Below are positions 3,199 through 55,205 of a DNA stretch of 64,000 bases, in pieces. The stretch comes from a virus. The stretch lies in UHGV virus genome UHGV-0134778. One strand, 5' to 3'. A model generated the notes under the pieces. That model was not told the DNA's origin, searched no databases, and saw nothing but the letters and a program-made list of their open reading frames with translations. The position numbers and the translations under genes were made by a program. Position 1 is the first letter of the stretch, and each line of letters begins with the position of its first letter.

Positions 3199-4944
3199 TT
3201 AACGTTGTGCAATAACTACATCCACAATATCACCAACACCACAATATGTCAATTGTAGCAAGGTGACGCTGTTGGCTTTGTTGTTAATAACAGGAGTAGC
3301 CGACAGTATGGCATATTTATCGTGCAAAGTCACGTTGTGACCTACAGCATCTTGAATGACATAGATGATTGCAGTAAACGGGTAAGGTTTATCTTCAGCC
3401 GATGTTCCAGGCCATTGGCCTATTGTAAAATCTCCTTTCGCGTGGACAACATACATACTGGCCTGCCCGTTAGGTGTCCATGTCCCACTGGATGCGTCAA
3501 CCTCCTCTAAATCAAAATCTACCTTCCCTGCGTGGAAAGTAGGGGCAGTAATAGTTTTACCAGCCTCAATTTCTTGAGAGGTGGTTATCTTACCACTGGA
3601 GTTAATGCCGTTGCAGACAAAGTTAACATTAGAGAAGTCTGGCAGCCACCCAGTCACCGTGCCGGATATTTCAAGGTTGTGAAGATAAGTGGTTCCCGTA
3701 CCTGCTGCGTTTAAACTAACATCCCCATTTACCTGCAAGTTGCGGGTAACGTTGCAGTTTTCAGAGTTTGCAGTTGTTGCAGTTAGAGTAGTGGTTGTCA
3801 GCTCGGTAATTGCACCTTTGTTGGCTGTAAGCCCTTCTCCTTCAAAAGTGGCACGCTCATTCACCCTCAGAGTATTTAAAGATATGTTCTGGACGGATGC
3901 TGTGCCACGAATGACTATAGATCCGCCAACCTCTAAATCTCCATTGATCAGTGCATCCCCCGTGCTTTCAATATAGCTAGGGTAGATCATGGTGCCATCT
4001 ACAGAGTAGGTTATCCCTGTAACGGTACCTGTCACCTCAAGGTTCTTAACCCTGGTGGTCCCATCAACCTGCAATGTCGGTTCGGTTGCTGCCTTCATGG
4101 CATTACCACGAATGTACACGTAGTCAAAAAAGTTATTACCTAGACCATCAAAATGCACATCGTTGTTATTAGCCACTGGTTTCCCAGAGGTTATAGTGTC
4201 AGCTATAACTCTGTGGGTGGCTACTTCATGAGGTTGTAGCTCTGTGCTTCTCCAGTCTGCATGCTTAGGATCGCTCCACGCAAAAGTCAGTGTAGAAGTA
4301 TTTGCAGTAAGGATTAGGTTCCTGAAGCGTGCAGTAGAATCCGCTCCATTAACAGGCCCGTGTAAGGTAAGGGTGCCACCAACTATGGTGTTAGCAAGTT
4401 CTGTAAGACCTTTTACCACCAAAGACCCTACAGTAACTTTCATCCCCTCCATGGCTTTAAATATACTATCCACATAGTCAACAACAAACTCTGTGTTTGC
4501 TATAGACTCGGACTTATCGTCCATTGGAGGTGTAGGTACTCGCGGGTCACCTTCGAATCTTGGGCTGTTAAGTTTTGCGTAGTATTTTGCCATTACTGCA
4601 GAATCGGTATATAATCTCCAGTTCGGAGATTGTGAAGGATCTGCTGGCATCCTAACCGGGTTAGATTTTGATGCTGCTGGGGCGTACCACCACTGAGGGC
4701 CTGTATCCCCTTTAAACTCATACAACTGGTTAAAAACTGTTGTGGATGCACCATACGCCCAAGGGATTGGTGGCGTTTTAAAATAAAGGGTGTCAAGCAT
4801 GGCTTTTCGTACCGTAGGGATGGTGGTTCCATCCTCTACGACAACTTCATCCACAGCGTTACCGTTGACAATCAAGTGCAAACGTTCAGAATCAACAATT
4901 ACTTGATCTACCGCCTGCTCGAAGCTTGTCATGTCTTGCGCCAT
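3199..4944 (-). CDS. tail fibre protein (beta-helix-like repeats)
   Basis: 581-aa ORF with RBS AAGGAG; Gly/Thr/Asn-rich repetitive segments typical of fibre shafts; sits in fibre locus. Confidence 0.5.
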   Translation of the reverse strand: MAQDMTSFEQAVDQVIVDSERLHLIVNGNAVDEVVVEDGTTIPTVRKAMLDTLYFKTPPIPWAYGASTTVFNQLYEFKGDTGPQWWYAPAASKSNPVRMPADPSQSPNWRLYTDSAVMAKYYAKLNSPRFEGDPRVPTPPMDDKSESIANTEFVVDYVDSIFKAMEGMKVTVGSLVVKGLTELANTIVGGTLTLHGPVNGADSTARFRNLILTANTSTLTFAWSDPKHADWRSTELQPHEVATHRVIADTITSGKPVANNNDVHFDGLGNNFFDYVYIRGNAMKAATEPTLQVDGTTRVKNLEVTGTVTGITYSVDGTMIYPSYIESTGDALINGDLEVGGSIVIRGTASVQNISLNTLRVNERATFEGEGLTANKGAITELTTTTLTATTANSENCNVTRNLQVNGDVSLNAAGTGTTYLHNLEISGTVTGWLPDFSNVNFVCNGINSSGKITTSQEIEAGKTITAPTFHAGKVDFDLEEVDASSGTWTPNGQASMYVVHAKGDFTIGQWPGTSAEDKPYPFTAIIYVIQDAVGHNVTLHDKYAILSATPVINNKANSVTLLQLTYCGVGDIVDVVIAQR

Positions 4945-4953
4945 GATTTCTCC

Positions 4954-5220
4954 TTAAGCTTTTTGCTCTTCGTTTTTAACGTGGTCAGGGTGCTGGCAAC
5001 CCCACCGGAGCGAGATGAATTTGCTAATAAGCTGGGGGCAGGCTACCGAAGGTGCGTATATCCACGCATACCATTCAGGAAGCGTATCATTGTACCCCAT
5101 ATGAATAAACACCCCAGTCATCACTGCCATGCCTATGTTTGACCATAGCTTAGATTGGGACACTTTTGTAGGGTCATCAGATGCTGCAACCAGTCCCCAT
5201 AAAAACTGAGTTAATTTCAT
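4954..5220 (-). CDS. small hydrophobic protein, possible holin
   Basis: 88 aa with 2-3 hydrophobic stretches and a charged C-terminus (HPDHVKNEEQKA). Confidence 0.25.
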   Translation of the reverse strand: MKLTQFLWGLVAASDDPTKVSQSKLWSNIGMAVMTGVFIHMGYNDTLPEWYAWIYAPSVACPQLISKFISLRWGCQHPDHVKNEEQKA

Positions 5221-5229
5221 TTACCCTCT

Positions 5230-6276
5230 TTAAGCATAAGATATGGTGATCCATTGACCGTTTACAAATTTTTGAATAGCTCCAGTCCAATAGTCGCCCT
5301 GATACGGGTGTTTATAGGCGTAATTGCCGGAGCACATTACATGCCCAGGGTATACTCTTGATTCTCTGTAGGTGGTTCTGAAACGGTTTGCTATCCTTAC
5401 ATCTTCAACACCTCTGCTAGGCATAGGAATAGTAAGGTTACCACTACTGTCTGCGCTACTACCATTTACCCTGCGGACCACGTTTCTTCCACCAACTGTT
5501 GCATATTGACCCCTGGCGGTTTTATCGTTACAATCTACTCTTCCGCCTATTTGAGCGCTGCCGCAGGATTGTTGTCCATTAACAGTGGCTCTAGGTATCG
5601 TTACCGCATTAGCATTTGCAGAGGCGCTTTTTGCATCATTGCATTCAAGATTTCCTTGGATAGCCAGTCTTGCACGGTTGGCAGTTATAGCATTGAGCTT
5701 CATAGCCGAAAACACAGGCTGCCCACCGGAAGGTTGAAATCTCCAACGGAAACCGTCTATTTGGTGGGAGGGGTCATCAAGGTCTGTGCCGTCAGCACCA
5801 CCGATGTTGTCCATAATCCAGAAATCCATCATCGTCTTGTCCGGAGTTATGGTGGTATATATTGCCGCATTGTCTGTTGACGCAGATGCAAACTCGATCC
5901 TTTGAAGACCTAAAGTTTGAGTCTGGATCATTGTGTCTCCAGCCTTGTCAACATAAAGGTCATCCATTTCTTCAGGTGAGTATACATTGAGAACTTGACG
6001 TGCAGCAGCTTTGTCTGGAACGTCTGCCAGATTATTAGTGACCCTTAAGAATCTATTATCCCATCCAGGGACAACATCTTCTGTTAAATGCTTTAGCCAC
6101 GCAGAGAGCATGTGGAGTTCAAAGTTAACAACTTCACATGCTATCCTTTGTGTCATATCCCAACCTTTCAATCTCTCTTCTTTGTTCGGTTGAGATTTGT
6201 TCAACTCTCCTGTATTTTCAAGCACAACATCCTGGTTGGCCCAAATATCAAGAGGGATACCTGGTTTAGTCATCAC
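5230..6276 (-). CDS. tail fibre / receptor-binding protein, paralog A
   Basis: 348 aa; N-terminus (PLDIWANQD..KGWD) and C-terminus (KFVNGQWITISYA) match the 7289..8329 protein while the centre diverges. Confidence 0.5.
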   Translation of the reverse strand: MMTKPGIPLDIWANQDVVLENTGELNKSQPNKEERLKGWDMTQRIACEVVNFELHMLSAWLKHLTEDVVPGWDNRFLRVTNNLADVPDKAAARQVLNVYSPEEMDDLYVDKAGDTMIQTQTLGLQRIEFASASTDNAAIYTTITPDKTMMDFWIMDNIGGADGTDLDDPSHQIDGFRWRFQPSGGQPVFSAMKLNAITANRARLAIQGNLECNDAKSASANANAVTIPRATVNGQQSCGSAQIGGRVDCNDKTARGQYATVGGRNVVRRVNGSSADSSGNLTIPMPSRGVEDVRIANRFRTTYRESRVYPGHVMCSGNYAYKHPYQGDYWTGAIQKFVNGQWITISYA

Positions 6277-6363
6277 GTTCTCCTGAGAAAATTCCTTAAG
6301 GACTATTTTAACACTTTAGAGAACAAAATGCAAGAACGGCATCCTTGCCGTTCTGACCTTTGT

Positions 6364-6678
6364 TTACCTTTTACTATGCTCTACAAGCATGTGTAAAATC
6401 TTTTGCACATCGGCTCTGATACCGGAGACATCTGTCCTGACATCTTGCTTAAGGTCGTTAATATCGGCCTCTAGCTTACTTAACCGGGTCTCGATAATGG
6501 AATCAAGTCTATCTTTTGTAACCATGCTATTTTTCACTAAAATGAGGTCTTTCTCCAGCTCATCCAGCCTCTTGGAAATGCCTTTCCATTTGGTGTGCCA
6601 CTGGTTGAAAGCCCATACACAGATCGGGACAACGGTACCCATGCAGATACCGTATAATGCCGCCAAATCCAACTCCAC
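6364..6678 (-). CDS. membrane-anchored coiled-coil protein (holin or lysis regulator candidate)
   Basis: 104 aa; one N-terminal TM helix (LAALYGICMGTVVPICVWAF) followed by heptad-like charged region. Confidence 0.3.
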   Translation of the reverse strand: MELDLAALYGICMGTVVPICVWAFNQWHTKWKGISKRLDELEKDLILVKNSMVTKDRLDSIIETRLSKLEADINDLKQDVRTDVSGIRADVQKILHMLVEHSKR

Positions 6679-6689
6679 AACACCTCCTC

Positions 6690-7274
6690 TTAGAGGGTAG
6701 GTCGTTCCGGGAAGAAAATGTCAGGGGCTTTAGATGTATCTATTTCAAGAAGTTTTACCCTGTACATTTTCAAATCTCTGATGTTGCGTTTCTGGTCATC
6801 AGTAAGATCATATTCAAGGTCAATCATGTCTTGATAGGCACCAATTCTAGCAGTAGCCCAAGCAAGTTCTGTCTCTATGACACCCTCTGCCTGTTGAACA
6901 AAGAACTCATTGTCTGCGACAAATTCATCACCAACTAAACGCAAAGCGTCGTGGTGGAGCATAATGTTTTCTGGTACCTCTTCTTTTTTGGCGATAACCA
7001 CACGAAGACCTGGAGCAGGCCACAAGGCATCAGGCTCTTCTGTAGATGTCTTAAGAATACCCTTCTCGTCAACAAGTAGGAAGATACAGCCAGGATTTTC
7101 TTGTCGCAATGTTCGTGATTGGACATACCAATCGCCATCATCGTTACGTAAAAAATATCCAGTGTATGCCGTGTAATCCTCCACCTCTTGAGGGGTAAGC
7201 TCCTTGGTCTCGTTGTTAGTGAAGTATTCGCCAGATCCCGGCTGGTAAAGTTTAAACTCTTGAAGTATTTTCAT
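6690..7274 (-). CDS. tail fibre assembly chaperone (Tfa-like)
   Basis: 194 aa; C-terminal YRVKLLEIDTSKAPDIFFPERP matches the conserved Tfa motif; directly downstream of a fibre gene. Confidence 0.55.
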   Translation of the reverse strand: MKILQEFKLYQPGSGEYFTNNETKELTPQEVEDYTAYTGYFLRNDDGDWYVQSRTLRQENPGCIFLLVDEKGILKTSTEEPDALWPAPGLRVVIAKKEEVPENIMLHHDALRLVGDEFVADNEFFVQQAEGVIETELAWATARIGAYQDMIDLEYDLTDDQKRNIRDLKMYRVKLLEIDTSKAPDIFFPERPTL

Positions 7275-49439: not shown

Positions 49440-49994
49440 TTACTCCCCGCTGTCAATAGCAAGACTCATTGCAATACGGTATGCCTCTTCTAATGGTAAG
49501 AGTCTCCCCCACACATCCCAACCGACATCAAACTGCCTGCCAAACAACTGCTGTGTGGTTCCGTGAGCATGACCGAACAGTTGGACTGATCCGTGAGGCT
49601 TTCTGTTCCACTTTGCAAACTGGTAATGGCTCATACAGATCAAATTCTTGTTGTGGCGAAGCTCGTAATAATCTACAACCTCATGACCGAACTCTTTCAT
49701 AATTCTGACAGTCGTCCTTGTGTCATGGTTACCACGAACAAGAATAATATGTCCGTTCAACATATTTAGAACATCTGGAAGCAATTTGTTGATATTCTTA
49801 TCATTAGTGCACGCAATATCCCCCAAGTGAAACACAGTGTCTGCAGGTGACACAACAGAGTTCCACTTGGTGATGATTCCCGCATTCATACTGTCAAGAT
49901 TGTGATCATACTGAGATCTGTGTTTTTGACATGAGTCGAACTCCATTACCCGCTGGTGGAGAAAGTGTGTGTCGCTTGTTACAAAGTATTTCAT
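49440..49994 (-). CDS. calcineurin-like metallophosphoesterase (polynucleotide 2',3'-phosphatase candidate)
   Basis: ORF track gives 49440..50099, but GAGGAA RBS precedes the internal MKYF start; motifs SDTHF, HLGDI, RGNHD. Confidence 0.55.
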   Translation of the reverse strand: MKYFVTSDTHFLHQRVMEFDSCQKHRSQYDHNLDSMNAGIITKWNSVVSPADTVFHLGDIACTNDKNINKLLPDVLNMLNGHIILVRGNHDTRTTVRIMKEFGHEVVDYYELRHNKNLICMSHYQFAKWNRKPHGSVQLFGHAHGTTQQLFGRQFDVGWDVWGRLLPLEEAYRIAMSLAIDSGE

Positions 49995-50001
49995 ACATTC
50001 C

Positions 50002-50412
50002 TCATTTAAGTTTAATGCAGTTTTTAAGCTGGCGTTCCATACGATCCACAACCCTGTCTGGAACATCATGAATGCTTTTATTACCATGGCGGTTTTCAAC
50101 CACGATCACGGTATAACTATATCCATGACTGATCGCCATGTCAATATATTCTTGCACATATTTTTCTTTTGTAAACGTATTACTTACCACGATACGGTCG
50201 TAGCCCATACGCATCATATCTTCTACGTTATCTTTGCACCATTTTGCTGCAAGTGTTACTTTACTTGCATCCCAATTGTAATTGCCGTCATCGTCGTACC
50301 AGAACATATCGTTCTCAAAATGTGGATACAGACCTTCTAAAGATAGCGCATTTGCCAGTGTTGATTTGCCAGACCCTGGTAGACCACGCACGATATATAG
50401 CATTTTAGACAT
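50002..50412 (-). CDS. P-loop polynucleotide 5'-kinase-like protein
   Basis: ORF track gives 50002..50568, but GGAGAG RBS precedes the internal MSKMLYIVRGLPGSGKST start; Walker A GLPGSGKST. Confidence 0.55.
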   Translation of the reverse strand: MSKMLYIVRGLPGSGKSTLANALSLEGLYPHFENDMFWYDDDGNYNWDASKVTLAAKWCKDNVEDMMRMGYDRIVVSNTFTKEKYVQEYIDMAISHGYSYTVIVVENRHGNKSIHDVPDRVVDRMERQLKNCIKLK

Positions 50413-50440
50413 AGTAACTCTCCGTTTTAATTTTAATGAT

Positions 50441-50469
50441 AGTATACCTAACTGTTTTGTTAATTTCAA
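50441..50469 (-). promoter_or_regulatory. sigma70-like promoter TTGAAA-N17-TATACT
   Basis: Read on minus strand upstream of the kinase gene in the divergent intergenic region. Confidence 0.45.
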
Positions 50470-50512
50470 GTGTTGACACCAAGTTATTTGTGTGGCAGGA
50501 TAAAGGGACAAA

Positions 50513-51448
50513 ATGACAAATGAGGAATGTATAATGAAGTATTTTAATGCAGACGACCTAGTTGACAAAGGTCTTGTAACCAGCAGATATTACCCGGATC
50601 TTGGGTTAAAGATCTATAAATATGCCAGAAAAGTATTCTACAACAATTTATGGCATTTGTCTCCTCGTTTGCTGGAGTGCCGAGGCATTGTTGTCGGTAA
50701 TGAAGGAAATGTTGTGGCATGGCCCTTCACAAAAGTGTTTAACTTGGGAGAAAATTCCACCAACCTGCCTGACAATAAACTTGTGACGGCGGTAGAGAAA
50801 AAGAACGGATTCCTTGGTGTGGTATCATCTCATAAAGGTGAACTATTGTTCTCAACAACCGGGTCTCTTGATTCTCCATATTGTAACCTTGCAAAGGAAA
50901 CAATCCAGGAGCAATGTGGTAATTTAGATCTTATCAAGAGGGTTATGGGCCATGAAAACATGACATTCATGTTTGAAATTTGTCACCCTTCAGATCCGCA
51001 TATTGTTCAGGAAGATCATGGCGCATATTTGATAGGTTGCAGATATAATGATTCTGGAATAATGCTACCAGAAGCAGCTTTAGATGGGATTGCCAAATAC
51101 CTTGGTGCAAAACGTCCTCACACTGTGCGTGAAATTCCGTTCAGCTATGCAAAAGAATTAGCTGCAGAAACAAGAGGTGAAGGGTATATGATTCGTAAGC
51201 CTTACTACCCTTATGATCTGCAGCTGAAGATCAAGTCTCCATACTATTTGGCACGGAAGGCCGTAATGAGGGGTAAAGCTTGGAAGATTTGGGATGATGA
51301 TATCTTTAAACGTGTTGACGAAGAGTTTTATGGCATGGTAAACTTCATTCGTAGCAATTACACAGAAGATGTGTGGAACTGCCTCCTGGAGCAAGAACGT
51401 CGTGAGATACTTGACTGCTATTTCCACAACGAGGACTATATGCAATGA
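50513..51448 (+). CDS. rnlA: RNA ligase, T4 Rnl1-like
   Basis: Stretch LLECRGIVV...PFTKVFNLGEN...VEKKNGFLGVVS parallels T4 Rnl1 around its KEDG adenylylation motif; alternative start at 50534. Confidence 0.65.
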   Translation: MTNEECIMKYFNADDLVDKGLVTSRYYPDLGLKIYKYARKVFYNNLWHLSPRLLECRGIVVGNEGNVVAWPFTKVFNLGENSTNLPDNKLVTAVEKKNGFLGVVSSHKGELLFSTTGSLDSPYCNLAKETIQEQCGNLDLIKRVMGHENMTFMFEICHPSDPHIVQEDHGAYLIGCRYNDSGIMLPEAALDGIAKYLGAKRPHTVREIPFSYAKELAAETRGEGYMIRKPYYPYDLQLKIKSPYYLARKAVMRGKAWKIWDDDIFKRVDEEFYGMVNFIRSNYTEDVWNCLLEQERREILDCYFHNEDYMQ

Positions 51449-51795
51449 AGAAGTTGATTGTGTGGCTGGATGACTTGAGAGATCCGTCAAATTATGGGCT
51501 CCCAGATGCTCTTTGGCTAAAGAATTCCTCTGAGTTTATGGATTTTATTAACGATAAGGGAAAGCTCTACAGGCGCGTTTCTGAGTGGCACATGGACAAC
51601 GATCTTGGAGAGGTATTTGAAGGGTACGATTGCCTATCTATGTTGGAGGAAAAATTTGTATTTGGTAAGCCTCCTGTAGTTGACAACGTGAAGATTTTCG
51701 TGCATACTTCTAACCCATCAGCGGCTCGTAAATTCATGATTGCTGCTGACTCGTTTAAAAAGTTTGGAATAGAGATTAAACAAAACATCTACTGA
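51445..51795 (+). CDS. small protein with receiver-like acidic pocket pattern
   Basis: 116 aa; LIVWLDD...HMDND...FVHTSNP...K pattern; translationally coupled to ligase gene. Confidence 0.3.
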   Translation: MKKLIVWLDDLRDPSNYGLPDALWLKNSSEFMDFINDKGKLYRRVSEWHMDNDLGEVFEGYDCLSMLEEKFVFGKPPVVDNVKIFVHTSNPSAARKFMIAADSFKKFGIEIKQNIY

Positions 51796-51803
51796 GGACA
51801 CTT

Positions 51804-52565
51804 ATGCGACGACTGATCATTATCTCCGGTGCTGGTTTGAGCGCTGAATCTGGTATCCCCACTTTCCGATCTGGTGGCACTGCAATGTGGGAGAATTTCA
51901 GCATCGATGAGGTGTGTAACATCCACACCTTTGCCAAGAACTACTATAAGGTGCATGACTTTTACAATGCACGGCGTGTAGCTCTGGGCAGTGTTGATCC
52001 TAACCTTGCACATCTCCGGATCGCTGAGTGGTATTCACGCTGGTCTGGTCGTGTGATCAACCTGACAACCAATGTAGATGATTTGCTGGAGCGTGCTGGT
52101 GTAAAACATGAAGATATTTTACATGTCCACGGATATTTGCCAGAAATAGTCTACGAGGATGATGAAGGGAGTAACGTCATTAAAGACATTGGATACTCTG
52201 AGGTAGACGCAAGCAAGTATACTTGGGTTAAGCCTAATGTAGTGTTTTTCGGAGAAGTAGCTCCAAAGTATACAGACATGTATGACCTGTTGACTTCTCT
52301 GACGAGCAATGATATGGTTATCCTTGTAGGGTGCTCCAACACAGTTATCAATTTTAACTGGGAGCTATTCCCTGCCTGTAATAAGGGAACCAAACTGCTG
52401 ATCGTTAACAAATACGACTCACAGCATTTAGGGGAGAATGGCATTTCACGTAGTGACATTTACCAGTATGAGGATCGCGGCATCCCAGTTTGGTTTAACG
52501 GGGCGGTTGACGCTTTCTCTGATAAAACATTTATTGACATCGTAGAAAACTTTATGGAACTGTAA
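51804..52565 (+). CDS. Sir2-family NAD-dependent protein lacking zinc ribbon
   Basis: GAGLSAESGIPTFR, TTNVDDLLERAG, HVHG and VGCSNTV motifs; no CxxC pairs. Confidence 0.65.
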   Translation: MRRLIIISGAGLSAESGIPTFRSGGTAMWENFSIDEVCNIHTFAKNYYKVHDFYNARRVALGSVDPNLAHLRIAEWYSRWSGRVINLTTNVDDLLERAGVKHEDILHVHGYLPEIVYEDDEGSNVIKDIGYSEVDASKYTWVKPNVVFFGEVAPKYTDMYDLLTSLTSNDMVILVGCSNTVINFNWELFPACNKGTKLLIVNKYDSQHLGENGISRSDIYQYEDRGIPVWFNGAVDAFSDKTFIDIVENFMEL

Positions 52566-52579
52566 GCGGAGGCCTTTTA

Positions 52580-53293
52580 ATGCTGAATACTAAACTGATC
52601 GACAACCTGGAAAAACTGTCTCAGCCTGAAAACTACCTTTGGTCTGCCAACTGGGTGGAAAATTGGAACCGTGTAGCAGCTAAAGTGAAAAAATCATACA
52701 CACCATTCGAACTTCAGCTGAGTTTCATTGAGGAAGAGTTCAATGAAGTTTTGGAAGAGTTGGAGAAAGGTGATGGTGGGGATCATCTCCTAAAAGAGGC
52801 CTGCGATCTTCACGTTGTCACAAGTTATGCCGCTTATCTTGTTAACGATAACCATGAAAAGTGGTCAAACCTGTTTGATAATCCGCGAGGTCTTAAGTTT
52901 AAGATCGGTGAATTTTATGATACACTGATCGCTGCGAAAAATACCTCTAAGCAAAGAGCGTCTGCTTACCGCTTAGCAGAGCTGTCAACGGCTTTACTGT
53001 TCCAGCTTCGCGGTGATGTGTGCGGGATGATGCGGAAGGTTCTAAAATCTAATGACAGCAAGTTTGCACGTGTCAACCATCTGCGGCATTCACACGGTGC
53101 CAGTGCAGATATGCCTGCTGAACAACTCATCGAGTTGGAGATTAAAGATCTTGAGCGACGCTTTGATGGTCGCTATGAAGGTTTTGTTGCTAAAGAAGAA
53201 TTCTACAACGGAAATAAAGTTATCATATTCCTCGACAGTAAAGGTAAGATTATGAAGCCTTCAAGCTTCAAGGATGTAACAGAATATATTTAA
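52580..53293 (+). CDS. MazG-like nucleotide pyrophosphohydrolase candidate
   Basis: 237 aa; EEEFNEVLEELE...EACD fits the EExxE...ExxD pattern. Confidence 0.3.
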   Translation: MLNTKLIDNLEKLSQPENYLWSANWVENWNRVAAKVKKSYTPFELQLSFIEEEFNEVLEELEKGDGGDHLLKEACDLHVVTSYAAYLVNDNHEKWSNLFDNPRGLKFKIGEFYDTLIAAKNTSKQRASAYRLAELSTALLFQLRGDVCGMMRKVLKSNDSKFARVNHLRHSHGASADMPAEQLIELEIKDLERRFDGRYEGFVAKEEFYNGNKVIIFLDSKGKIMKPSSFKDVTEYI

Positions 53294-53300
53294 TAACATA

Positions 53301-53328
53301 GCCGGGGCGATCCCGGCTTTACTTGTTT
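53301..53328 (+). terminator. rho-independent terminator
   Basis: GCCGGG-GCGAU-CCCGGC hairpin followed by TTTACTTGTTT. Confidence 0.55.
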
Positions 53329-53666: not shown

Positions 53667-53922
53667 TCTTGCTAGACCTGTAGAAGCACACCAGTTTGAC
53701 GGAAGCTCTTCATCAGTATCTGATCTGCAACGGTGGATTGATACAGGTGTGTTTACACCGTCACCTGTTCGGACCAGAGATATTCTTCGCATGTGTGAGC
53801 TTGTCGAGCCGTTTGGTAACCTGGTCTTGTACCAAGGGGATTGGTTAGTTGACTTTATGGGAGACTGGTTGGTAATGAGCAAAGAAGAGATGTTTAAAAT
53901 TTTTAAGGAAGAGGCTGAGTAA
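53653..53922 (+). CDS. hypothetical protein
   Basis: 89-aa ORF coupled to DNA ligase start. Confidence 0.35.
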   Translation: MPLFNLARPVEAHQFDGSSSSVSDLQRWIDTGVFTPSPVRTRDILRMCELVEPFGNLVLYQGDWLVDFMGDWLVMSKEEMFKIFKEEAE

Positions 53923-55205
53923 TGCATCAGATCAAAACAACACTGTACGCACTGAACAAAGATGGCAGCTACCAACAGTGGAAAGTATTCACGGATGGTG
54001 ATAAGGTTATCGTAGAGTTTGGCAAGCTTGATGGTAAACTGCAATACAAAGAGACGATCTGCACACCTAAGAACGTGGGTCGTGCCAATGAAACTACAGC
54101 TGAGCAACAGGCTGAGCTGGAAGCGATCAGTAAGTGGGAAAAACAAGTCCGTCTGGGGTATGTTGAAAATATGGAAGATTGCGAGCAGGGTGTTGACCTT
54201 TTACCCATGTTGGTGCATGACTACCTGAAGCGTGGAAAGGCACTTAAATTACCTTGCTGGATTTTGCGTAAGTTAGATGGCCTTCGTCTACTGGTTGTTT
54301 TCCAAAACGGTGAGCCTAAATTTATTTCCCGTGGTAATAAGTCCTACCCTATTCAAGGAAAGCTTCTGGAGCAACTTCGTTCTTTCCACTTCACCACCGG
54401 GATTAAACAGCTCGACGGAGAGATCTATATTCATGGTCTGCCTCTGCAGAAAATAGTGTCTCTTGCTAAACGTTGGCGCACACAGGAAGAGATTCAGGCC
54501 GAGATCGATAAAGACTACGAGGCAGATAAAAAACGCCGTCATGCCGCAATTAAGGCAGGCTTATCAACATACAAAAACTTCAATAAGGTAGATATTCCTG
54601 TTGATGTTGAGCCTGTTCGTGATGATTTGCGTTACGGAGGGTACTGTAGCTATGACTTAGAGTATCATATTTTCGACATCCCTAGTGACAAGGTATGGTG
54701 GGATCCAGAAACAGAATCTGGACGATGCAAGGATCTTATGGATGCAGAAGATACCATTACCACCCTGATGCTTGACCATATCAAGGTTGTTGACGCAGAG
54801 CTTGCGTACACAGTTGATCATTGCGAAGAATCTGTTGGTGTATTCATGTCCGAAGGATATGAAGGTACTATCATGCGTAACTTCTGCGGTAAATATGAAT
54901 ATGGTCAGCGAACATCTGAAGCATTGAAATGGAAAAAGTTCAACGATGCTGAGGTGAAAGTTATTGACGTTGAGAAAGATAAGAATGATGAAGGTGTTCT
55001 TATCTGCGTTGACAAGGAAGGTATCGTTGTTAAAATGAAGATGAAAGGCACGCACGAGGAGCGTAGCTATGACAGGATGCAGGAAATGATCGGCAAGTTT
55101 GTCACCTTCAAATATCAAGCAAGGACAGAAGACAACAACTACCAATTCCCTGTCGGCATCTGCGTCCGAAATGTTAACCCTGACACTTGGGAGGTTCTGG
55201 AATGA
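53922..55205 (+). CDS. ATP-dependent DNA ligase with N-terminal extension
   Basis: 427 aa; motif I KLDGLR; roughly 90-aa N-terminal extra domain. Confidence 0.65.
   Translation: MHQIKTTLYALNKDGSYQQWKVFTDGDKVIVEFGKLDGKLQYKETICTPKNVGRANETTAEQQAELEAISKWEKQVRLGYVENMEDCEQGVDLLPMLVHDYLKRGKALKLPCWILRKLDGLRLLVVFQNGEPKFISRGNKSYPIQGKLLEQLRSFHFTTGIKQLDGEIYIHGLPLQKIVSLAKRWRTQEEIQAEIDKDYEADKKRRHAAIKAGLSTYKNFNKVDIPVDVEPVRDDLRYGGYCSYDLEYHIFDIPSDKVWWDPETESGRCKDLMDAEDTITTLMLDHIKVVDAELAYTVDHCEESVGVFMSEGYEGTIMRNFCGKYEYGQRTSEALKWKKFNDAEVKVIDVEKDKNDEGVLICVDKEGIVVKMKMKGTHEERSYDRMQEMIGKFVTFKYQARTEDNNYQFPVGICVRNVNPDTWEVLE

Follow-up and report, generated by a model that had tools for sequence, protein, structure and literature searches.

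The DNA analysed here is a 64,000-nucleotide stretch of the virus genome UHGV-0134778 (the window), and the element in question is a predicted RNA-repair cassette at positions 49440-51448, where three intact genes were identified, encoding a metallophosphoesterase and a P-loop kinase on the minus strand and an RNA ligase on the plus strand. As proposed by the first-pass annotation of this DNA, the kinase and the calcineurin-type phosphatase were found to be encoded by separate adjacent genes lying 7 nt apart, and the pair is divergently oriented to the ligase, with a 100-bp region between the kinase and ligase starts. Comparison with GenBank showed 97-99.5% identity across 3 kb to rV5-like coliphages (Vequintavirus; more than 100 phages), with phage NHEP1 being the best match (99.5%). 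Query coverage was at least 80% in 118 of 120 matching GenBank records, indicating that the region is kept among relatives. The gene products are named in these records as 'RNA ligase', 'phosphoesterase', '3'-phosphatase 5'-polynucleotide kinase' and 'ATPase', with newer records using 'cyclic-phosphate processing receiver domain-containing protein' for the cREC gene that follows the ligase.

The ligase boundaries given at first pass (Table 1) were retained, with those of the other two genes having been mechanical open reading frame (ORF) ends at the 5' side. The mechanical ORF of the phosphatase (49440-50099, minus strand) begins with a TTG at 50099. The true start is almost certainly the ATG at 49994, as GAGGA is located 5 nt upstream, homologue alignments begin there and GenBank phage HMD-6 has an annotated gene of 555 nt. 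For the kinase, the mechanical ORF (50002-50568, minus strand) gives way to a real start at ATG 50412. The ligase may begin at its second ATG (50534, giving 304 aa), because residues 1-4 are of low confidence in the structure model and homologues align from approximately residue 8. The kinase TGA sits inside the ribosome-binding region of the phosphatase and, together with the short distance between stop and start, this points to kinase and phosphatase being a translationally coupled pair within one leftward operon. Promoter-like sequences were identified in both directions in the divergent intergenic region, namely two overlapping sigma-70-like sites on the minus strand (each a 10/12 match) and a TTGACA on the plus strand, these being consensus matches only and to be read as candidate sites. 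GC skew flips from negative to positive at this region, which is therefore the border of leftward and rightward gene blocks. The rightward operon begins 100 bp from the kinase start with the ligase, followed by genes for cREC, Sir2 and a MazG-like protein, with a terminator-like hairpin after the latter.

Table 1. Features identified at and around the predicted RNA-repair locus (positions in the 64-kb window)
Feature	Position	Strand	Description
Metallophosphoesterase	49440..49994	-	184 aa, stand-alone calcineurin-type; predicted RNA 3'-end healing (2',3'-cyclic phosphate and/or 3'-phosphate removal)
Mini P-loop kinase	50002..50412	-	136 aa, polynucleotide-kinase fold; predicted RNA 5'-OH kinase
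Divergent intergenic region	50413..50512	.	100 bp, between kinase-phosphatase and ligase operons
RNA ligase	50513..51448	+	311 aa, ATP-dependent, Rnl1/Trl1 structural clade, short all-helical C-terminal module
cREC (cyclic-phosphate-processing receiver-like domain)	51445..51795	+	116 aa; PF20274
Sir2-family (sirtuin) protein	51804..52565	+	253 aa; PF02146
MazG-like nucleotide pyrophosphohydrolase	52580..53293	+	237 aa; phrog_671; peripheral member of published neighbourhood
ATP-dependent DNA ligase	53922..55205		same rightward operon, 2.5 kb downstream
Seven tRNA-like genes	45692..46503	-	ARAGORN, Rfam; context, functional link to cassette not implied
tRNA-Thr(UGU)	45856..45931	-	within the tRNA cluster
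Aberrant tRNA-like gene	45938..46034	-	within the tRNA cluster
Candidate promoter 1	50469..50441	-	TTGAAA-17-TATACT
Candidate promoter 2	50463..50436	-	TTAACA-16-TATCAT
Promoter-like hexamer	50473	+	TTGACA
Inverted repeat, first arm	49993..50007	-	15 nt
Inverted repeat, second arm	50518..50532	+	15 nt
Terminator-like hairpin	53300..53318		after MazG-like gene

The kinase was identified as a member of Pfam AAA_33 (9.7e-10) and has approximately 8000 stand-alone homologues of about 130 aa, with the best 120 of these all confirmed as stand-alone. A search of the PDB with the single sequence returned no match and a family profile was required, for which the top solved relatives were RNA or polynucleotide kinases, namely the stand-alone Mucorales kinase 9d8a (3.5e-6), Pnkp1 (4e-5) and T4 Pnk (1e-4), followed by PSTK and CthPnk. 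In both structural and profile matches, polynucleotide and tRNA kinases rank above gluconate, shikimate and nucleotide kinases. Profile comparison with the T4 enzymes, a check put forward at first pass, was positive for kinase and ligase alike, with hhalign probabilities of 95.8% for the kinase against PseT (from the T4 genome), covering the entire T4 kinase domain, and 97.5% for the ligase against RnlA (residues 33-248). The former alignment pairs D35 with D35 (the general base), S77-N78-T79 with S84-D85-T86 and R108 with R122. Residues invariant in the family are the P-loop, D35, N78-T79 and E106-N107-R108-H109, with S77 near-invariant. The protein is a Pnk-fold P-loop kinase in which the general-base Asp follows the P-loop by approximately 20 residues. 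No C-terminal HAD (DxDxT) 3'-phosphatase was found, as the 136-aa protein ends with the kinase domain.

The phosphatase matched Pfam Metallophos (PF00149; 5e-6, 27.5 bits vs a gathering score of 21.5) and Metallophos_2 (3.6e-6), both just past threshold, and phrog_547 'phosphoesterase' (5e-51). The five motifs of binuclear metallophosphoesterases (DxH, GD, GNH(D/E), H and GHxH) are complete (D8 and H10; G58-D59; G88-N89-H90, followed by D91; H123; G141-H142 and H144), being invariant or nearly so among 40 homologues, on account of which the enzyme should be catalytically competent. The family profile gave Aquifex aq_1665 (1xm7) as the best PDB match (9e-28), followed by GpdQ, YfcE, an MPE nuclease and MJ0936. 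The phosphatase chains of CthPnkp and of lambda, which we take to be among the PDB entries, were not recovered with this profile at E<=0.1. Placement of the phosphatase within the Pnkp/lambda-phosphatase clade was rejected on these grounds, as the profile finds the aq_1665 group and not those chains. Of the split Pnkp-like module described at first pass, the separate kinase and metallophosphoesterase genes stand; for the phosphatase, the sequence matches make 'Pnkp-like' an analogy inside one superfamily and not a homology. The analogy is still relevant since members of this superfamily, CthPnkp and lambda phosphatase, are known to heal 2',3'-cyclic phosphate ends (PMC2190708). Kinase-phosphatase fusions, which would be the true counterpart of a split Pnkp, were not found among 90 phosphatase homologues or the best 120 of approximately 8000 kinase homologues.

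The ligase matched PF09511 (RNA_lig_T4_1) at 1.1e-14 (55.3 bits vs a gathering score of 28.3). The PDB again returned no match with the single sequence, the family profile being required; the only significant PDB sequence matches were then T4 Rnl1 entries (3e-13). Nucleotidyltransferase motifs I, III, IV and V were identified (K96-x-N98-G99, F154-E155, E223-G224 and K239-x-K241) and are invariant in 37 homologues. Alignment with the T4 enzyme pairs K96 with K99 (the adenylylated Lys), E155 with E159, E223-G224 with E227-G228, and K239 and K241 with K240 and K242. An N-terminal sub-domain of Rnl1 type is also present, with the invariant residues R57 (ECRG) and K74/F76 (PFTKVFN) corresponding to T4 R54 and K75/F77, of which Arg54 and Lys75 contact the ATP gamma-phosphate (PMC6379707). 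Following motif V, a short helical module of approximately 65 aa was found that is not alignable to T4 Rnl1, in place of a C-terminal domain of T4 Rnl1 type. What defines a family of RNA ligases is the domain attached to its nucleotidyltransferase core, and it is the C-domain of T4 Rnl1 that gives tRNA anticodon-loop specificity (PMC6379707); as this domain is missing, tRNA specificity cannot be inferred for the ligase. With the NCBI T4 RnlA equivalog model its score is 39 bits, far under the cut-off of 242. The initial description of a T4 Rnl1-like ligase was borne out for the family match and the intact catalytic residues, and not for the C-terminal domain or RnlA equivalence. The gene product is best classified from these matches as an Rnl1-type enzyme that is not a T4 RnlA orthologue, and its substrate preference is therefore not readable from T4.

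Homologues of the ligase were found in 664 GenBank phage records, with hosts including Escherichia, Pseudomonas, Vibrio, Klebsiella and Streptomyces, among others. In many GenBank records the product is labelled 'RNA ligase 1 and tail attachment protein', and phrog_562 belongs to the 'tail' category, which would suit a ligase retained chiefly for a structural function (attachment of tail fibres, T4 gp63's second activity) and with unrelated neighbours. This label is inherited from T4, however, and the residues for nucleotidyl transfer are all invariant in the 37 diverse homologues. Furthermore, the gene is located among early/metabolic genes rather than tail genes and is linked or fused to the kinase in other phages (see below), making such a role scarcely credible.

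To describe gene linkage beyond the rV5-like phages, similarity to the query ligase was used to select 80 IMG/VR loci, which form 41 clusters at 70% identity, with genes called mechanically and detection performed using hidden Markov models built from the query families. A kinase gene was found in 37 of the 41 clusters and a phosphatase gene in 35, with both occurring in 33; within 1 kb of the ligase, the corresponding figures were 32 (kinase) and 29 (phosphatase). The partners are co-directional with the ligase in every cluster but the rV5-like one. In two clusters (13 loci) the kinase is fused to the N-terminus of the ligase, and phrog_8238 matches both proteins. In the sister genus Seunavirus, the genes lie on one strand in the order phosphoesterase, ligase, cREC, kinase, Sir2 and DNA ligase, and Pseudomonas phage PaP1 has genes for phosphoesterase, ligase, kinase, PRPP synthetase and NAMPT in that order. 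With the partners on the ligase strand elsewhere, including the one-strand order of Seunavirus, the divergent rV5-like arrangement is a local rearrangement of a widespread co-directional operon. When the search was seeded with the kinase (21 clusters), an RNA ligase from either of two families was found nearby in 16 clusters and a phosphatase in 11. On kinase-seeded contigs of freshwater phages, the kinase abuts a Metallophos gene, with an RNA ligase of the other family (PF09414-type) 1.8 kb downstream. The gene structure, integrity of catalytic motifs, folds and conserved linkage are established by these data, and the linkage, the fusions and the second ligase family support the prediction of an RNA heal-and-seal module.

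Some phages were also observed to encode two RNA ligases side by side, one Rnl1-like and one PF09414/PHA02142-type, near the same kinase (e.g. L040, 10509-11588; L087, 6859-7977; and L108). This suggests sealing enzymes that are specialised and not redundant.

A DNA ligase gene is part of the same rightward operon (Table 1), and 15 of the 41 clusters have one no more than 4 kb from the RNA ligase. T4 Pnkp is established as acting on DNA ends too, and the phosphatase gave a faint match to PdeM, the ligase-associated DNA-damage endonuclease (TIGR04123; E 2.4e-4). Kinase and phosphatase could, on this basis, process DNA ends together with the downstream DNA ligase during phage DNA replication, recombination or nick repair, as eukaryotic PNKP does. 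However, the RNA ligase is the tightest and commonest partner of the kinase, to the point of fusion, and the kinase-phosphatase pair also accompanies the second RNA ligase family with no DNA ligase seen in the flank. The PdeM score (20.6 bits) is also far under the cut-off of 150. We regard DNA-end processing as quite unlikely to be the function of the module.

The RNA-repair unit is larger than the three genes of the cassette first annotated; those three are real, and the cREC, Sir2 and MazG-like genes, which had been missed, belong to it too. The cREC protein matched PF20274 (cREC_REC; 4.8e-14, 53.2 bits vs a gathering score of 27), and its start overlaps the ligase stop (ATGA). Residues conserved among 40 relatives are W7, D9, D10, R12, P14, D51, D53, H87 (invariant) and N90, with the receiver-type acidic residues D9-D10 and D51/D53 being kept. 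No solved cREC homologue was found. In sister genera the gene is placed between ligase and kinase. Opening of 2',3'-cyclic phosphates, or else of cyclic ADP-ribose phosphates, is the predicted activity of the domain (PMC7824862, PMC9503650). The Sir2 protein matched PF02146 (1.1e-26) and phrog_2162 (9e-109), and its gene comes after the kinase in Seunavirus. It falls below every NCBIfam deacylase cut-off, including that of NAD-dependent deacylase (4e-35), and on inspection by eye the CxxC pairs that normally mark a sirtuin zinc module were not found, which fits the mention of a 'distinct clade of sirtuins' in PMC9503650. A role like that of the 2'-phosphotransferase KptA/Tpt1, acting on 2'-phosphates, has been proposed for the sirtuin (PMC9503650). 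The MazG-like protein matched phrog_671 'nucleotide pyrophosphohydrolase' (1.1e-21) and is annotated as such in HMD-6; a Pfam scan gave no match.

As cREC, Sir2 and MazG are all NAD+/nucleotide-processing families, these proteins together with the kinase and phosphatase might instead target small nucleotides or second messengers of immunity (cyclic nucleotides, derivatives of ADP-ribose or alarmones), with the ligase being a mere neighbour. A possible role of cREC on cyclic ADP-ribose derivatives is given in the literature (PMC9503650), the AAA_33 fold includes small-molecule kinases (found among the lower-ranked structural matches), and NAMPT-like and PRPP-synthetase-like genes recur beside the module in other phages. 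However, the best structural and profile matches of the kinase are polynucleotide and tRNA kinases, kinase-ligase fusions exist, and most clusters without cREC, Sir2 or MazG still have the kinase and phosphatase alongside RNA ligases, leaving this explanation with little likelihood.

The NAD+ salvage genes mentioned above are NAMPT-like in 15 and PRPP-synthetase-like in 14 of the 41 ligase clusters (e.g. L169, phage PaP1 gp018/gp020, 4322-6867; L040, 11591-12433; L034, 11925-13538). A ribose-phosphate pyrophosphokinase is also located nearby in Seunavirus. These occurrences suggest that RNA repair is linked more widely to NAD+ supply.

The presence of ligase, cREC and Sir2 in one operon also allows for a ligase that is Trl1-like and dependent on a 2'-phosphate. 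In such a scheme cREC or the metallophosphoesterase would open the cyclic phosphate to yield a 3'-OH/2'-PO4 end, the ligase would seal it, and the sirtuin would remove the junction 2'-phosphate with NAD+. The structure model of the ligase fits Trl1-LIG nearly as well as T4 Rnl1, and the invariant residues K249 and R253, 8 and 12 residues past motif V, approximate the position of the 2'-phosphate-binding RxxR of Trl1. Counting against this, K249 and R253 are invariant also in many phages without sirtuin or cREC, and the partner most often present is a full phosphatase. The proposal for the sirtuin, furthermore, has already appeared in print (PMC9503650), which counts against its novelty. We consider the scheme rather improbable; if true, a coliphage would be carrying out yeast-type tRNA ligation in which Tpt1/KptA has been replaced convergently by a sirtuin.

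A cluster of tRNA genes (Pro-UGG, Met, Thr-UGU, an aberrant Lys-UUU-like gene, Ser-UGA, Tyr-GUA and Arg-UCU; ARAGORN and Rfam) was identified downstream of the kinase-phosphatase pair, whose strand it shares. The separation of 4 kb quoted at first pass is approximately right, being 4.0 kb to the ligase start and 2.9 kb to the phosphatase stop. In 17 of 42 representative loci tRNA genes were found no further than 8 kb from the ligase, and in the other 25 there were none in this range; a preferred co-location of tRNA genes and ligase is suggested. The module could accordingly serve the phage's own RNA metabolism, for example maturation or quality control of the nearby tRNA cluster, which includes one aberrant tRNA-like gene of 97 nt with a long extra arm, rather than counter-defence. 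However, neither an intron nor a splicing endonuclease or other enzyme that generates cuts was found in the vicinity, the majority of the representative loci have no tRNA gene in range, and repair of host-inflicted tRNA damage is the one role established by experiment for the homologous enzymes of T4. The likelihood of such a housekeeping role appears slight. The main points that weaken all four of these alternatives (tail attachment, DNA ends, small nucleotides and the phage's own RNA) are that kinase-ligase fusions exist, that the pair goes with two RNA ligase families and that the catalytic residues are invariant.

For the aberrant tRNA-like gene (97-99 nt), ARAGORN gives a 4-base anticodon 'atcc'. 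The Rfam tRNA alignment (35.5 bits) places the loop as UUUUUAA, corresponding to anticodon UUU (Lys) on a 4-bp anticodon stem, with an extra arm of approximately 27 nt containing a hairpin. The gene is kept in the relative L006 (89% identity), and the cluster of the sister phage L008 has a canonical tRNA-Lys(UUU). PrrC and PARIS both target tRNA-Lys(UUU), so the aberrant gene might be a nuclease-resistant variant or a decoy. A tRNA-Thr(UGU) gene is also part of the cluster (Table 1); according to a 2025 paper, P2 OLD preferentially cuts host tRNA-Thr(UGU), and phage threonyl-tRNAs resist it via changes in the anticodon stem (PMC12445682).

RNA end-healing and sealing is the function that we assign to the module, with a probability of roughly 0.78. 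The substrates, division of labour, order of action and biological targets that we infer would be as follows. Host or competitor ribonucleases, such as anticodon nucleases, would leave a 2',3'-cyclic phosphate at one end and a 5'-OH at the other, the latter of which would be phosphorylated by the 136-aa Pnk-fold kinase. The stand-alone binuclear metallophosphoesterase would turn the cyclic or 3'-phosphate end into a ligatable hydroxyl (3'-OH), with cREC possibly opening the cyclic phosphate first in the rV5-like lineage and so aiding the phosphatase. The Rnl1-type ligase would self-adenylylate at Lys96 and transfer AMP to the 5'-phosphate (AppRNA), upon which the break would be sealed. Sir2 and the MazG-like protein would form an accessory NAD+/nucleotide branch and may remove a residual 2'-phosphate or process by-products. 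The cassette probably counters RNA-cutting host defences.

A number of observations weigh against this assignment. In the ligase, T116 replaces T4 Lys119 and N98 replaces T4 Asp101, both being invariant in the family, and the T4-type C-domain is lacking. Among R38, T86 and R126, which we take to be known sites of T4 Pnk, Arg38 has no counterpart in the kinase according to hhalign, position 38 being Trp/Phe in the family. The solved relative nearest to the phosphatase, aq_1665, has no assigned function. Furthermore, a distant phosphatase homologue (P0162) was found in a Bacteroidota prophage without kinase or ligase, so that the phosphatase family alone is not diagnostic. The clusters at 70% identity are not phylogenetically independent events, and cREC and Sir2 occur in only 13 and 11 of the 80 ligase loci, respectively, and are therefore lineage-specific additions. 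Finally, no biochemical or genetic work on the rV5 proteins, and no assay of any enzyme from the kinase, phosphatase and ligase families, was found in the searchable literature.

Comparison with known RNA-repair systems revealed both similarities and differences. The same three chemical steps are expected here as in the repair of tRNA-Lys by T4 Pnkp (PseT) and Rnl1 (RnlA) after cleavage by PrrC. The kinase shares the fold and catalytic Asp of the T4 Pnk kinase domain, and the ligase shares the adenylyltransferase domain and catalytic residues of Rnl1. In contrast to T4, where the phosphatase is a fused HAD/DxDxT domain, that of the present locus is a separate binuclear metallophosphoesterase; the kinase has no Arg38 equivalent, and the ligase is 63 aa shorter with a C-terminal module that is not alignable to the T4 tRNA-specificity domain. 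In bacterial Pnkp-Hen1 (Clostridium thermocellum) and Pnkp1-Rnl-Hen1 (Capnocytophaga gingivalis), the genes that are separate here are fused. Bacterial Pnkp is a single polypeptide with a lambda-phosphatase-type domain, a C-terminal Rnl4-type ligase domain and a Hen1 partner, an arrangement not found at this locus; neither was the phosphatase of lambda type, nor was a Hen1 methyltransferase found among the neighbours scanned. In the split system of Mucorales, healing and sealing are encoded separately, and it is the stand-alone kinase of that system (9d8a) that the kinase best matches. Fungal and plant Trl1 (LIG-KIN-CPD) uses a 2H cyclic phosphodiesterase, whereas the healing enzyme here is a metallophosphoesterase. 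Sealing by Trl1 also requires a 2'-phosphate and subsequently NAD+-dependent Tpt1, and no Tpt1/KptA was found at this locus.

A perfect 15-nt inverted repeat (AAATGAGGAATGTAT) was found with its arms flanking the kinase gene and the divergent promoter region. It is unique in the window, with none expected by chance. Each arm gives a Shine-Dalgarno sequence and start context, that of the phosphatase ATG (49994) and of the second ligase ATG (50534), and MKYF begins both proteins, the ligase if started from the latter. A role as an invertible-segment switch was rejected, as the flipped junction was found in none of 114 GenBank records matching a chimeric query and the repeat decays in distant relatives (one mismatch in HMD-6, lost in L006). 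The repeat is more probably left over from the rearrangement, or reflects a translation-initiation context common to the two genes. It was also observed that 18 to 23 GenBank records named 'Campylobacter phage' (e.g. MG065646 and MG065647; host Campylobacter jejuni) are approximately 97% identical to the rV5-like E. coli sequence, and the Campylobacter host assignment of these records looks doubtful.

The rV5-type locus has been published previously, as a neighbourhood 'prototyped by Escherichia phage V5 and Proteus phage Mydo' (Iyer, Burroughs, Anantharaman & Aravind 2022, Viruses 14:1977, PMC9503650, section 3.7.3), and was described as a predicted NAD+-using RNA repair system. The genes listed for it are a T4-like tRNA ligase, cREC, a nucleotide kinase, a sirtuin, a MazG pyrophosphatase and a calcineurin-like phosphoesterase (PMC9503650). 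All six are present here within 49440-53293, in the same phage group, and there is no essential difference from the published locus. The cREC domain had been defined earlier, with its operonic linkage to RNA ligases noted, and in some phages calcineurin-like domains were reported to stand in for HAD phosphatases (Iyer et al. 2021, PMC7824862). With this neighbourhood published (PMC9503650) and its genes routinely annotated in more than 100 GenBank genomes, the cassette is a correct reading that is already known as a computational prediction, and as a genome-scan discovery it is not new. What is added to Iyer et al. 2022 is that the phosphoesterase is a regular and not an occasional partner of the ligase (35/41 clusters), that the kinase-phosphatase pair also goes with a second ligase family, and that the pair is inverted relative to the ligase in the rV5-like lineage only.

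Defences that cut tRNA (PrrC, RloC, PARIS, retron effectors, Cas13, OLD and Schlafen-like nucleases) are a major arm of bacterial immunity. To our knowledge, T4 Pnkp/Rnl1 is essentially the sole phage RNA repair system to have been proven experimentally. The rV5-type module would be a different and much more widespread solution than that of T4, given the number of phages that encode its ligase family, with the mini-kinase and metallophosphoesterase travelling as a portable pair. As rV5-like phages are easy to grow and engineer, they would be a good experimental entry point for this predicted module. Its small enzymes may be useful as reagents, and work on the module could answer whether cREC and the sirtuin take part in RNA-end processing and which nucleases are neutralised.

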